This document shows, one piece after another, positions 1-64,000 of a DNA stretch of 64,000 nucleotides. The notes beneath the pieces are model-generated. The model saw only the letters and a program-made list of their open reading frames with translations, did not search any database and was not told the DNA's origin. This DNA is from Carcharhinus amblyrhynchos. Taxonomy: Eukaryota. Position 1 is the first letter of the stretch. Each line of letters begins with the position of its first letter. The translations under genes and the position numbers were made by a program. The stretch lies in NCBI GenBank assembly GCA_965287045.1, contig OZ336903.1, positions 1,178,001 to 1,242,000 on the forward strand, read 5' to 3'.

Positions 1-1400
1 TTCCTCCTTATTCTTTTACCCACCCAGATGCCACATAAATGTTTCTCATGTGTCCGCTTCTATCACCTCCTCTGGCAGCGCGTTCCAGGCATGCACTAGC
101 TCCTGAGCTGCTCTCACACACCTTACTTAAACTGTCCCCTTCTCACTTTACGCCTGTGCCCCCTTTCCTACTGAACAGATCACGAATGGCACCAACAAGC
201 AGTGAAATAGAAGGTGCTGGTCATAAGCCTGATTTTCTGGAAATACCAGCCATCACCTGAATCATTTGTGTACCGTGTAGATGATACACAGCAGCAAATG
301 GCCAAAACTCATTTGGCAGTTCATTCCAAACCCGCGATTTCTACCAGCTAGAAGTACAAGGACAGGCCTACAGCAATGCACAGAATTGCACATTCCCTTC
401 TAAGTCGGTCAACATGCTGAGTTGGGACGATATGGGGGTTGTTTCATTCTGGTGTGAGCTCAATCCCTAATGTCTCTATCCCTGCACCAGTGCATCATGT
501 ACTGCAGCCAGGCAGCAAAAAAACAGGTTCAGACATCAATTCCTGAAGACATCTGGGCACAGATAATAAATGCTGTCATTGTCAGGGACATTGCCTGACT
601 TCACCAGAGATAGCATAATAATAACTAAAGTGCAAAGGCCGTGGCTGAACGTGGGGTATTAACATTATTGAAAGAGATATAGAGACATGGAAAGTTGGGT
701 ACTGTAAAATGTAGACCCATTTCAAGATCACAAAACGTCATTAGTATAAAACAGTAAGGCAGCAGATGTATCTGCCCGTGACTGAGTATTCGATTTGCCA
801 ACGTTTTATATTAAACTATGAGACCTTACACAGAACAAAAACATGTCAGTATTACGAGTAGAACTAATTACACAGCATCGTATTTGTAGTTCAAAACCAC
901 CATTAAACATTGGAAACGTTGAGCTCGCAGCAGGAAGGACAGATTAGGAGTCGCTAGTGGAAGCATAATTTCCAAATATATGGCCACACAAAACTAACAC
1001 TTCCCTGACATAAGACATCACATTTAGAATATAAGCGGACATTTGCTCAAACTTTGCGAGGCAGGGTGATTTATTTCCAGGGTCTGGAGGACGAAGCTAA
1101 TGTGTAAAATGTTTCAAAACATTTTACAAATGTTTCAAAATATTTTACAAGGAAACGGTGGAGTTCGCCAATCTAGAATGAATAACGGGTTTTCATAGCT
1201 CATTATAAACAACAGAAAGCTCAATGGATATTCAGTGTGTCTGGGAAGAGACTGACAAGTATCCAGTGATTGATACACAAAGCTGATGTTAATGTCTGAT
1301 TTCGAAAGCTTTGTTTTGTTTTCTAAAACCCATTTTTCCGAATAACAACCAGAAATACTCATGCTGCAAATTCGCGCAAGAAGTCGGATTTTTCACTTCG
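1..1400 (+). repeat. Segmental-duplication copy (intron 1 of gene C); direct repeat of ~62640-64000 (intron 1 of gene B)
   Basis: Collinear similarity, e.g. atgtttctcatgtgtccgcttctatcacctcctctggcagcgc (39) vs atgtttctcatgtgcctgcttccatcacctcctctggcagcgc (62686), continuing to gcaaattcgcg-aagaag at ~1366 vs ~63969. Confidence 0.92.
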
Positions 1401-1556
1401 CTATTATTTCGCTGGTGCGACTGATATTAAGTATATTGCTTGATCTGCCAGTTATAGCAACGTTGGTCCCACTTAGATTTAATATTTAACTTTTCAGTGT
1501 TTACAAACGTTCCCATTACTCCAACTGAAAATAATTTGTAAAGAATTTGTTTAACA

Positions 1557-2349
1557 TAGTTTAATGTGGAAAAGTGTGAGGTAATTCACTTTGGCAGGAA
1601 TAACAGATGTGTAGAGTATAGGGCTAACGGTGGGACTCTGAATAGTGTGGATGAACAGAGGGATCTAGGTGTATGTGTACATAGATCACTGAAAGTTGGG
1701 AATCAAGTAGATAGGGTTGTTAGGAAGGCATACGTTGTCTTGGCGTTTATTGGTAGGGGGATTGAATTTTGGAGCCGCAGCGTCATGTTGCAACTGTACA
1801 AAACTTTGGTGCGGCCGCACTTGGAGTATTCTGTGCAGTTCTGGTCCCCACATTATTGGAAGGATGTGGAGGCTTTGGAGAGGGTGCAGAGGAGGTTTAC
1901 CAGGATGTTGCCTGGTATGGAGGGGAGGTCCTTTGAGGAGAGGCTGAGGGATTTGAGGTTGTTTTCGTTAGAAAGAAGGCGGCTCCGAGGGGACCTTATT
2001 GAAACATATAAGATGATGAGAGGTTTAGATAGGGTGGACAGTGATAGCCTTTTTCCTCGGATGGAGAAAGCTAGCACGAGGGGGCATAGCTTTCAATTAA
2101 GGGGTGGTAGTTATAGGACGGATGTCAGGGGTAGGTTCTTTACCCAGAGGGTGGTGAGGGATTGGAATGCCCTGCCTGCTGCAGTTGTAAATGCGCCCAG
2201 TTTGGGGGCGTTTAAGAGATCCGTGGATAGGTTATGGATGGAAAGGGTTTGGTTTAGGTTAGAGGGTCATTGCTTTTTAACTGGTCGGCGCAACATCGTG
2301 GGCCGAAGGGCCTGTTCTGCGCTGTAATGTTCTATGTTCTATGTTCTAT
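1557..2349 (+). mobile_element. 5'-truncated CR1 LINE (ORF2 C-terminal part, 3'UTR, (TTCTATG)n tail)
   Basis: ORF 1566-2327 has [49 protein letters not shown]; ends tgttctatgttctatgttcta. Confidence 0.96.
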
Positions 2350-61460: not shown

Positions 61461-61863
61461 CTGAAATGAAATTTTGAAAATTAGTCTTTGTTGGAACAGG
61501 AGATGAATGAAACTGTCAAAACCAAACATCACAAAGTCAACACCGAGGATCTGTGTTATTTCTTCACTATATGATTTCCAAGCATTTGCTGTTAAAAAGT
61601 TTTATTCAAATTACCTCACCCGCGATACTATGGCCTATGAACATCCTGGTCTCATTCCATTTTTTGAATATATTTTTAAGCACGTGTTACCGTATTCCCA
61701 AACAGGGATATTTTGTGTCAGTCAAATCTCCAAGTCTACTTTAGCCTCTAGTTTGCATAATAAAACCAAAAAGACAGTGATTCTTCTCTCTGGTTGGATT
61801 GCTGAAATTTATAACTTGACCCACAGAGTAACAATGATAAAGTTACTCGAATATCTCTGCACC

Positions 61864-62262
61864 AGGGGAGATCTCATTGAGACGTATAAGATGATGAATG
61901 GGATGGATAGGATAGAGGTGGAGAGACTCTTCCCGCTCAAAAAAGGCAGTAGGACTAGGGGGCACAGCCTCAAGATAAAGGGGAGGCGGTTTAGAACGGA
62001 GTTGAGGAGGATCTTCTTCACTCAAAGGGTGGTGAATCTCTGGAATTCTCTGCCCGTTGAACTGGTGGAGGCTGCCTCGCTAAATATTTTTAAGAAGCAG
62101 GTTGATGGGTTCTTGATAAGAGAGGGGATTAAGGGTTATGGGGAGAGGGCGGGAAAGTGGAACTGAGCCACAACAGATCAGCCATGATCTTATTGAATGG
62201 CGGGGCAGGCTCGAAGGGCTAAATGGCCTACTCCTGCTCCTATTTCTTATGTTCTTATGTTC
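61864..62262 (+). mobile_element. 5'-truncated CR1 in intron 1 of gene B
   Basis: RGDLIETYK...[14 protein letters not shown]; ttcttatgttcttatg tail; empty site at ~16470. Confidence 0.93.
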
Positions 62263-64000
62263 AATACGGACAGTGCGTCATTTATTTCCAATGCAGACAA
62301 TCCTCAAATATCCTTATTAACTCTTCGCAAATAATATCGCACAACTTCCACTTACGTTGTTCTCATTGCCAGAATTGCGGGATAGCATTGCAATATTTAC
62401 GCAAAATGTTGACAATTTCTATGGTCCAAATGGAATCTCTGACCCCCTTCACCCATTCCATCTTCCTATCTCTGGCTCCACTTTTCAGTGTTCAGTAATT
62501 CTCCCACTGAACATTGACCCATTTCAAAAACACAGAATAAAGAAAAGTACATCATGGAAATAGACCCTTCGGTCCTTCAACCCCTGTCCATCATGATGTC
62601 CATTTAAGCAAAAAAAGTTGTGTTATTTCCGTCCCTATCCTTCTATTTTCTCTTTATTCTTGCACCCATCTAGATGTCTCTTAAAATGTTTCTCATGTGC
62701 CTGCTTCCATCACCTCCTCTGGCAGCGCCTTGCAGGCATGCACTACTTTCTGAGCTTTTCCCACATATCTTACTTTAAATTTCCCCTCTCACCTTAAATC
62801 TGTGGCCCCTTTTCTTCCTGCAACAGATCACTAATGACACTAACAAGCAATGAAATAGAAGGCGCTGGTCAGCAGCCTCATTTGCTAAAAAACAGCCATC
62901 ACCTGAATCGTTTGTGTACCGTGTAGATGATAGACAACAACAAATGGTCAAGACTCATTCGGCAGTTCATTCCAAACCCGCGATTTCTACCATCAAGAAA
63001 TACAAGGACAGACCGACGACACCACCCTGAATTGTACATTCCCTTCTAAGCCGGACAACATGCTGAGTTCGGACGATATCGGAGTTGCTTCATTCTCGTG
63101 AGCGCTAAATCCCTAATCTCACTATGCCTGCACCAGTGTATCATCTACTGAAGCCAGGCAGCAAAAAATGCTCAGAGATCCATTTCTGAAGACATATGGG
63201 TACAGATAACAAATGCTGCCATTGCCAGGGACACTGACTTCACAAGAAAGAGCATAACAATAAAAAAAAGCAAGGCCGTGGCTGAATGTGGAATATTAAC
63301 CTTATTTGGAAGAGATATAGAGACATGGGAAGTTTGGTACTGTAAAATGTAGGCCCATTTAAATATCACAAAAAGCCATTCGCACGAAGCAGAAAGGCGG
63401 CAAATATATCTCCCCGTGACTGAGTATTCGATCTGTTAATCATGTTTTATCTTAAACTATGAGACACAACAAGTAACAAATAAATGTCAGTATTACGAAT
63501 GGAATTAATTACACTACATCGTATTTGTAGTTGAAAACCACCGTTTAAGTCTGGAACCGTTTAGCTGACAGCAGGAAGATGAGATTACGAGTCGCTAGTG
63601 GAACCATAATTTTGAAATGTACGGCCATACCAAACTAACACTCGCCAGATATAAGATATTAGTTTTAGAATATAAGCGGAAATTTATCAAATCTTATCTG
63701 GACAGTGAGTTTTTTTTTTCCTGGGATCTGTAAAATGGCTGAAAACATTTTCCAAGGAACAGTTGGCGTCGCCAATTTGGAATGAGTAATGGGTTTTCAG
63801 AGCTCATTCTAAGAAATGGAAAGCTCAATGGATATTGAGAGTGTCTGGGAACAGGTTGACAATTATCCAGTGATTGATACACAAAACGGAAGTCGATGTA
63901 TGGTTAGAAAGCTTTGTTTTGATTTCTAAAGCTCATTTTTCCAAATAGCAATCAGAAATACTGATGTTGCAAATTCGCGGAAGAAGCCGGATCTTTCATT

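Follow-up and report, generated by a model that had tools for sequence, protein, structure and literature searches.

Gene content and organisation of the locus

The analysed window is a 64,000-nucleotide stretch of the 2.9-Gb genome of the shark Carcharhinus amblyrhynchos (contig OZ336903.1, hereafter C34; C34:1178001-1242000), and it lies within an array of genes encoding membrane receptors built of SRCR domains. Self-BLAST of the window and exon mapping bore out the three paralogs of the original prediction, in the order C(-), A(+), B(-). The window contains exon 1 of C only, the whole of A and most of B, with seven SRCR exons on the plus strand (A) and seven on the minus strand (B). All three of the window SRCR exons scanned against Pfam matched PF00530. 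The closest named protein to the fourth domain, SRCR4, comes from Mustelus asterias (87% identity), in agreement with the cartilaginous-fish source that had been claimed. The search for structured RNA in the window gave no Rfam matches.

Genes C and A are arranged head to head, their ATG codons lying at 4504 and 14536, 10.0 kb apart, and inverted self-matches connect 2891-5821 with 12412-16152 in four pieces of 77-81% identity. Genes A and B stand tail to tail with 4.0 kb between their last exons, and they are connected by inverted self-matches of 72-86% identity between 16152-40689 and 43845-62600. The alternating orientation reported earlier holds for C, A and B in the window, but over the whole array of 23 genes (strand order +-++-+---+-+-+-+---+---; 16 runs) strict alternation is only a tendency and is marginal (p=0.052, shuffling). 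The repeating unit is a tail-to-tail pair: a minus gene directly follows eight of the nine plus genes, and seven of these eight pairs are spaced 4-10 kb.

Gene B is intact, with 16 exons, canonical splice sites and a product of 963 amino acids. The protein consists of a signal peptide, seven SRCR domains and a linker, a Ser/Thr stalk, a transmembrane (TM) segment and a tail with the motifs IYEEID, IEYY and GYDDAE. Exon mapping placed exon 1 at window position 66251, 2.2 kb beyond the window, and exon 2, on the same minus strand, at 61460-61428. These are followed by the exons of SRCR1 (60475-60161), SRCR2 (57832-57518), SRCR3 (56540-56226), SRCR4 (n-like, 55913-55599), SRCR5 (d, 54186-53872) and SRCR6 (e, 53108-52791), the linker exon (52705-52649) and SRCR7 (d', 52551-52243), the classes of SRCR4, SRCR6 and SRCR7 being drawn also from the trees described below. 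The Ser/Thr exon lies at 52103-52065 and the TM exon, with a glutamate in the helix, at 51876-51760. The cytoplasmic exons with IYEEID (49206-49099), IEYY (47642-47532) and GYDDAE (47051-46920) and the last exon with the stop codon (44330-44284) complete the gene.

Exon 1 of gene C, encoding the signal peptide, maps to 4504-4459 on the minus strand, and the remainder of the gene lies to the left of the window. The segment 2891-5821, which comprises the promoter, exon 1 and the start of intron 1 of C, is homologous to A 12412-16152. The mapped exons of C, including those of seven SRCR domains, the TM segment and three tyrosine motifs, carry no lesion; its short Ser/Thr exon fell under the search threshold.

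The glutamate of the TM helix (ICEL/ICEF) is present in all 23 array genes (TM exons 51760-51876 and 27500-27616 in the window) and in most shark homologues, several Heterodontus genes excepted. It is a possible partner-binding site.

Domain classification and family placement

According to the sections of Herzig et al. 2010 used here (PMC2906472), domain a is diagnostic of WC1, and the six-cysteine domain n, which lies between c and d and is without Cys 2 and 7, is diagnostic of CD163c-alpha. The same source places e-d' next to the membrane, gives the tail motif Y-(Q/E)-(D/C/E)-(I/L) as common to the group and describes six chicken genes as a/n hybrids. Two domain trees, of 212 and 55 domains, were built from 340 domains of 35 database proteins together with the three window genes. 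SRCR4 has six cysteines and groups with the domain located just before d-e-d' in proteins of birds, turtles, coelacanth, bichir and teleosts (SH-like approximate likelihood ratio test, SH-aLRT, 95 and 97). SRCR6 groups with WC1 e (SH-aLRT 96 and 97) and SRCR7 with WC1 d' (SH-aLRT 89 and 83). By its place in the chain SRCR5 is d-like, and bovine d4 and d9 match it better than any other domain of the window, while SRCR2 and SRCR3 fall into the b/c group with no clean assignment (approximately unbiased, AU, test p=0.25 for SRCR2 as b). With six cysteines, SRCR1 has the count of WC1 a, and among the window domains it scores highest against bovine a (92 vs 75 bits); it appears to be an a-like domain, its orthology to WC1 a being unstable. 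The DMBT1 domains stand apart from shark SRCR2-7 in both trees. The resulting layout is an a-like domain, two b/c-class domains, an n-like domain, d, e and d'.

The array genes have group B SRCR domains (6-8 Cys), each in one exon, in a type I membrane protein. Their tail motifs IYEEID and DYDDAE match VYEELD and NYDDAE of bovine WC1, and a YEE(I/L) tail occurs in shark, ray, coelacanth, bichir, teleost, turtle, bird and bovine proteins of this layout; it is absent from both DMBT1 proteins tested. The search with the Mustelus TM segment and tail yielded 13 homologues, all from sharks, and reached no bony vertebrates. In the best PDB stretch for the Mustelus homologue, the region from d-e-d' onward aligns with CD163 682-1101.

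We file the array genes as CD163c-alpha(SCART)/WC1-group hybrids, which would be WC1-like in working and are not WC1 itself. The WC1/CD163-like nature claimed for them thus stands as membership of the CD163c-alpha/WC1 group (domains e, d' and n, and the tail), but they are neither ruminant WC1 nor the haptoglobin receptor CD163A. In databases, these proteins are named DMBT1-like or M130-like.

The end of shark SRCR4 (residues 419-453 of the homologue) aligns with human CD163 682-717, the two-cysteine c-d linker. This alignment suggests that the mammalian CD163 linker exon may be a remnant of an n domain.

Size, integrity and history of the array

The copy-number search was performed with one SRCR4 exon, and 150 of the 422 candidates were scored. 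It revealed 23 matches of 91-100% on C34 between 171 and 2039 kb, which form a 1.9-Mb array, at least seven of 55-59% at C34 8.52-8.80 Mb and at least four of 49-53% on contig C3 (137.87-138.18 Mb). The expansion of the family proposed earlier is therefore evident, and a total of only two or three copies genome-wide does not apply. The YEEI exon was found at 24 places on C34, corresponding to 22 of the 23 genes and two tail fragments, and in A it is missing.

All B exons were mapped onto 1.06 Mb of the first 2.1 Mb of C34, which covered the 23 genes and, in part, the gaps between them. SRCR1 is present two or three times in seven genes, and SRCR2 is missing in four. In total, there are 35 SRCR1 exons in the 23 genes and one in a fragment, and 35 of these 36 are distinct. 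Every mapped coding exon is free of lesions in 16 of the 23 genes, among which one has a broken partial extra SRCR1 and one is without the third tyrosine. Two further genes have late-tail lesions only and keep the three tyrosine motifs, so that 18/23 show no lesion ahead of the late tail. The remaining five are broken before or in the TM region, each differently; in one, the damage is a single base within a G run. A TM lesion flagged in the gene at 1333 kb proved to be an alignment artefact; the only real lesion there is a 1-nt loss in the G run, which may be a sequencing error. The short Ser/Thr exon was under the search threshold in six genes, in one of which it was seen by eye.

The copies are mosaic. 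In 500-bp windows, the nearest relative switches several times along each gene: between exon 2 and SRCR4, B shares 97-100% identity with the copy at C34:222 kb, and elsewhere it is nearest to other copies; the 5' part of C has its close match, of 91-99%, in the copy at 321 kb. Gene A is the most isolated of the 23, with a median best match of 85% in the 5' part and 82% in the 3' part. Because nearest relatives are mosaic and A has no close partner, the inverted arms reflect paralog similarity across the whole family, which was probably shaped by unequal exchange or conversion. The original prediction was right on the inverted match and head-to-head order of C and A, and on the coordinates and tail-to-tail order of the A and B arms of about 24 and 19 kb. 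However, a recent local inverted duplication is rejected for both pairs, as B and C have their nearest relatives at distances of about 0.85-1 Mb and A is an outlier; the arms are not sister duplicates.

The array is not an artefact of assembly either: from copy to copy the number of domains, the repeats and the mosaic pattern vary, and several loci are represented in named shark proteomes. The two most similar genes, at 171 kb and 2039 kb, match at 96-100% over most of their length; they are on opposite strands, separated by 1.87 Mb, and diverge at the 3' end, and a redundant assembly copy in this pair is a residual possibility. A paired activating/inhibitory cluster was also considered and rejected, as all unbroken genes on both strands have one tail type and one TM segment.

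In the sister array at C34 8.52-8.80 Mb, the two sampled genes have three a-like domains, n-d-e-d', a TM segment and tails of YAEI/YDYVE type, and one of them has a split SRCR3. No TM segment or tail was found in the examined gene stretches of the C3 cluster. Upstream of exon 1 in seven genes, at a distance of 5-7 kb and on the same strand, there is a solitary decayed copy of the last tail exon (at C34 951, 1124, 1313, 1349, 1392, 1509 and 2064 kb), a possible trace of an older head-to-tail arrangement.

Diversifying selection in SRCR1

The pairwise ratio of non-synonymous to synonymous rates (dN/dS), pooled over the 18 unbroken genes, was 1.25 for SRCR1 (bootstrap range 0.82-1.89) and 0.31-0.53 across SRCR2-7. 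The codon site test of M1a against M2a was run in a custom implementation on a fixed nucleotide tree, with the five broken genes left out. For SRCR1 (27 sequences), twice the log-likelihood difference (2dL) was 212, with omega 7.1 on 15% of sites and a framework with omega 0.07 on half of sites; for SRCR2-7, the values were, in order, 11.8, 7.4, 10.3, 4.8, 5.9 and 13.3. The signal in SRCR1 survived the splitting of the domain into thirds with a tree for each (2dL 28, 61 and 54) and the removal of the indel loop (2dL 109), which upholds the earlier view of a diversifying family.

Thirteen SRCR1 sites were called as selected: 29, 31, 32, 69, 70, 86, 87, 89, 91-94 and 97. In DMBT1 SRCR8, as described in the consulted part of PMC7043408, the exposed cation sites, proposed to bind ligand, comprise D1019, D1020, E1086, D1058, D1059 and N1081, and the buried site comprises D1023 and D1026. 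These residues were transferred by a constant offset, which is justified by a gap-free alignment of SRCR1 to CD163 SRCR7 and an equal-length match to DMBT1 chain 6sa5; the exposed residues correspond to positions 30, 31, 97, 69, 70 and 92 and the buried ones to 34 and 37. Five of the six exposed positions are among the selected sites (p=8e-5), and the sixth is variable; the two buried aspartates are both kept in 33 of the 35 SRCR1 copies. In Mustelus, for which 15/16 cluster members were listed, some of them isoforms, and 14 models were used, SRCR1 is again the least conserved domain, and nine of its 12 variable positions coincide with the 13 selected sites. The acidic D-D...E cation site is kept nearly invariant in SRCR5 and SRCR7. 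These sequence comparisons point to strong diversifying selection on SRCR1 at its predicted ligand-binding face, and diversity centred on domain 1 across a multigene family is a trait of the WC1 type.

State of gene A

The 5' part of gene A, on the plus strand, is in good order. Exon 1 with the signal peptide (14536-14581), the 11-codon spacer exon 2 (16883-16915) and the hypervariable, a-like SRCR1 with its six cysteines (17697-18020) are intact, and SRCR2 (20218-20532), SRCR3 (21548-21862), SRCR4 (22180-22494), SRCR5 (24065-24379) and SRCR6 (25930-26247) are open with AG/GT splice sites. The linker exon (26333-26389) has lost its donor (CT), and the SRCR7 exon (26487-27122) has lost its acceptor (CG), its last cysteine and its donor, being broken near its end by a repeat of about 330 bp and of the size of a short interspersed nuclear element (about 26776-27109). 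The Ser/Thr exon (27276-27314) and the TM exon (27500-27616) have intact splice sites, and a TAA stop at 27604 ends the frame three residues past the membrane helix. Downstream, the YEEI exon is deleted near 30920, and three tail exons are decayed: 33844-33954 with a lost donor, 34477-34606 with a frameshift and a change of YDDAE to SDDAE, and 40228-40271.

Private changes of A are as frequent in the tail exons as in introns (16/246 vs 34/425, p=0.54). They stay well under the intron rate in the ectodomain (25/1641 vs 46/894), in the linker and SRCR7 (4/301 vs 10/202) and in the stalk and TM exons (3/138 vs 27/310). It follows that the tail died first, while the rest stayed near the family. 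If the linker and SRCR7 exons are skipped, A encodes an in-frame product of 708 aa, a six-domain, tail-less membrane protein.

We give even chances to A being such a tail-less receptor with its two dead exons skipped. That it is a pseudogene is a lesser yet serious possibility, and a secreted form is rather improbable. The private changes in the 5' part, about 16 non-synonymous to six synonymous, have a near-neutral ratio and include D37N in SRCR1 and D30Y in SRCR5. Such a ratio counts against a maintained receptor, as the open frame may reflect conversion or recent death rather than selection; the same near-neutral ratio is also seen in several intact genes. The downstream junctions of the A transcript could moreover trigger its decay, which likewise speaks against the tail-less receptor. 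We do not favour an origin of A from a recent 5' half and a 3' half that died long ago, because the 5' intron flanks of A are also the most diverged of the 23 (5.1%). A looks like the only candidate for a maintained tail-less form among the 23 genes. The earlier division into signalling and non-signalling members thus survives only insofar as A may be tail-less; no such division is built into the array, where 18/23 genes have no lesion ahead of the late tail.

Transcripts, promoters and a conserved non-coding block

Contigs of two sequencing runs from related organisms, presumed to be RNA, join 61428 to 60475 at the modelled intron at 85% likeness, and they also join SRCR7 via the short stalk exon to the TM exon. 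As exons are joined at the modelled junctions, relatives evidently splice such transcripts.

The promoter scan used consensus motifs and gives only a hint. It found an ETS core at about -140 in 24/24 promoters, which does not separate lineages, and a TCF/LEF-type site at about -120 in 22/24. No PU.1 or C/EBP consensus was present in the 450 bp of promoter scanned, and no octamer consensus in the promoters scanned.

A 340-bp non-coding block follows the SRCR1 exon of A (18611-18950) and has its counterpart near 59000-59400. It is 93-98% identical in 27 copies, compared with 70-81% in control introns, and has no Rfam match. The block is a candidate regulatory element or enhancer, or alternatively a recombination or conversion tract.

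Proposed function and alternatives

We consider it probable that the locus is a 23-copy array of the CD163c-alpha(SCART)/WC1 family with a diversified domain 1, whose products would serve as germline-encoded, microbe-binding co-receptors on T cells (probably gamma-delta) with a shared YEEI tail. What the array itself shows is the number of copies, the domain layout and the motifs of the tail, together with the selection on domain 1 and the exchange of segments between copies. Domain 1 would bind varied microbial surface ligands, the bearing cell would be a T cell, probably of gamma-delta type, and the tail tyrosine would be phosphorylated, as in WC1, on clustering with the antigen receptor, and the whole set may signal through the common YEEI tail. 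In the portions of the literature consulted, WC1 binds bacteria and potentiates T-cell receptor signalling via its tail tyrosines, domain a carries most of the family diversity, and the YEEL tyrosine is required to potentiate T-cell activation (PMC8356672, PMC3511184). SCART2 and bovine CD163c-alpha are reported on gamma-delta T cells (PMC2906472), and an m130-like gene of cod marks a tcrg/tcrd cluster (PMC9276791). Given the function of WC1 and the cod gene, a set of microbe-binding co-receptors on T cells is by analogy the likeliest role. A fuller account remains tentative: that sharks possess WC1-type hybrid pattern-recognition co-receptors on gamma-delta T cells, with about 35 different tip domains diversified at the cation/ligand face and reshuffled by exon duplication and conversion, a common tyrosine tail and at least one tail-less competitor, gene A.

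Several points weigh against this interpretation. The trees were built without mammalian SCART1, so that the n label depends on domain position and number of cysteines; the AU test mildly rejects SRCR3 as a c domain (p=0.033). Bovine a joins shark SRCR1 or not depending on whether the 55-domain or the 212-domain tree is chosen, doing so in one (96, on a long branch) and standing with bird domains in the other, and in AU tests both placements of SRCR1 remain acceptable, with a-like domains (p=0.29) and with DMBT1 (p=0.145). With markers of six families, no shared synteny with the mammalian CD163/WC1 or SCART1 loci was found: none of the six is on C34, FUOM and TPI gave no match, and the others lie on C1485 (EMG1), C3 (MLF), C1/C13/C31 (Calcyon family) and C9 (MHC I). 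The selected sites are naive empirical Bayes calls from custom models on a fixed tree, and rampant gene conversion inflates site tests, the probable reason for the weak signals in SRCR2, SRCR3, SRCR4 and SRCR7. Finally, the two spliced runs come from related organisms, their tissue is unrecorded, and they are only presumed to be RNA.

The same family and binding face could instead operate on macrophages or granulocytes as scavenger or phagocytic receptors in the manner of CD163A, although we think this unlikely. YxxPhi is a form of internalisation signal, and YEEI, which fits it in general terms, would then act mainly in uptake. The nearly invariant cation site of SRCR5 and SRCR7 agrees with this, as does the ETS core in every copy, though it is not lineage-telling; the TCF/LEF-type sites and the lack of PU.1 and C/EBP consensus in the scanned 450 bp argue weakly the other way. 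CD163A and CD163b are indeed macrophage receptors, but the YREM tail of CD163A is unrelated to the WC1/CD163c-alpha tail, and in the sections drawn on here the n-class domain is reported only in CD163c-alpha-like proteins (PMC2906472). Location of the receptors on B cells or on epithelial or mucosal cells, or a domain 1 that tracks a polymorphic host ligand (immunoglobulin, MHC-like) rather than microbes, is more doubtful still. On C34, seven IgM C-mu4 exons are interspersed with the array genes or border them, so that some regulation could be shared, the SRCR protein CD5L is described as binding IgM, and databases name these proteins DMBT1-like. However, IgM clusters are scattered over many contigs, so that proximity says little, the promoters have no octamer consensus, and the proteins have a TM segment and a tyrosine tail with no CUB or ZP domain listed.

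It is highly improbable that the array mainly reflects neutral turnover close to a chromosome end, with the signal in domain 1 arising from conversion and from relaxed constraint in loops freed by disulphide loss. The copies are mosaic, 5/23 are broken, the array starts 150 kb from the contig end, and two selected sites are positions of lost cysteines. Yet SRCR4 is without the same disulphide and is the most conserved domain (93% mean identity; 2dL 10.3), the SRCR1 framework is strongly conserved, the SRCR1 signal survives the domain split, and the same sites vary in Mustelus.

Comparison with known receptor systems

The shark genes resemble CD163c-alpha/SCART1-2 (m-l-b-c-n-d-e-d') and the chicken WC1/CD163c-alpha hybrids (a...c-n-d-e-d') in having a six-cysteine n-type domain before d-e-d', a TM segment and the tail motif; like the hybrids, they are multigene, with at least 18 genes in chicken and at least 10 in platypus according to the consulted sections (PMC2906472). 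They differ from CD163c-alpha in that m or l was not identified in them (no mammalian CD163c-alpha was compared), domain 1 occurs in one to three copies, SRCR2 and SRCR3 cannot be cleanly equated with b and c, and the TM segment contains glutamate. With ruminant WC1, which has 13 genes in cattle as given in the part of PMC3511184 used, they share the multigene state, diversity in the distal six-cysteine domain and a YEE(L/I) plus YDDAE tail spread over several exons. Identity with ruminant WC1 (a-b-c-d-e-d-b-c-d-e-d', without n) was rejected, because the shark proteins have seven domains, not eleven, including one of n class. The d-e-d' block by the membrane aligns in order with that of CD163A (M130, the haptoglobin-haemoglobin receptor), but CD163A is single-copy in eutherian mammals with h-i-j-k and a YREM tail, whereas the shark gene is multicopy with a tail of the WC1 type (YEEI). 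DMBT1/SALSA shares the SRCR fold and the cation/ligand face used for site mapping (PMC7043408, in part); it was rejected on tree, layout and tail, as it has near-identical SRCR repeats followed by CUB (and ZP) and no tyrosine tail.

The family itself is known, and its function in sharks is proposed by analogy; what is new is the count over the whole array, its mosaic history, the evidence of selection on the ligand face and the condition of A. No description of the family in cartilaginous fish was found in the open literature, subscription journals and shark genome supplements being outside this scope and a prior mention possible. Term look-up in PMC9207270, PMC10620051 and PMC13007054, as far as their text was available, retrieved nothing relevant. 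On the basis of chicken, platypus and cattle, Herzig et al. suggested that the ancestral condition was to have many WC1/CD163c-alpha genes, and in the sections used they covered amniotes only (PMC2906472). A shark array with n-d-e-d' and a YEEI tail moves the multigene state back to the jawed-vertebrate ancestor; if the genes are indeed WC1-type co-receptors, that state would be as old as jawed vertebrates and not confined to amniotes. The names DMBT1-like and M130-like hide the family in shark databases. The cation/ligand face of domain 1 is the one surface to which the selected sites point, which also suggests where to look in WC1 domain a. Should the genes mark gamma-delta T cells, they would provide subset markers for a group with few reagents.

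Neighbourhood and repeats

The seven IgM heavy-chain C-mu4 exons among or flanking the array are located at C34 667, 706, 1523, 1763, 1821, 2004 and 2075 kb. A V exon and C exons are present in the one IgM cluster checked, and one C-mu4 exon stands tail to tail with a three-exon SRCR gene fragment. More than 30 shortened C-mu4-like matches (query residues 18-126, 92-95%) occur near chromosome ends or on small contigs, e.g., C9:58958, C20:37973, C25:5496, C4:104130 and C3:104813, as if the IgM fragment were part of a subtelomeric repeat. Just past the array, at C34 2.09-2.21 Mb, there are two fragments weakly matching C-type lectins, 150 kb from the array, and a fragment of an NLR helical domain; the 140 open reading frames of the flanks gave only Ig C1, NLR fragment and weak lectin matches.

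Between the genes of the window are 3' fragments that we take to be LINE-like (1560-2350, 29360-30720 and 61864-62262; no Pfam match for the two tested), a tandem repeat (6254-7373) and simple-repeat tracts (8880-11990 and 41688-42999). Gene A is without a part of intron 1 that is common to the other copies, which explains the direct match of 1-1395 with 62647-63998.

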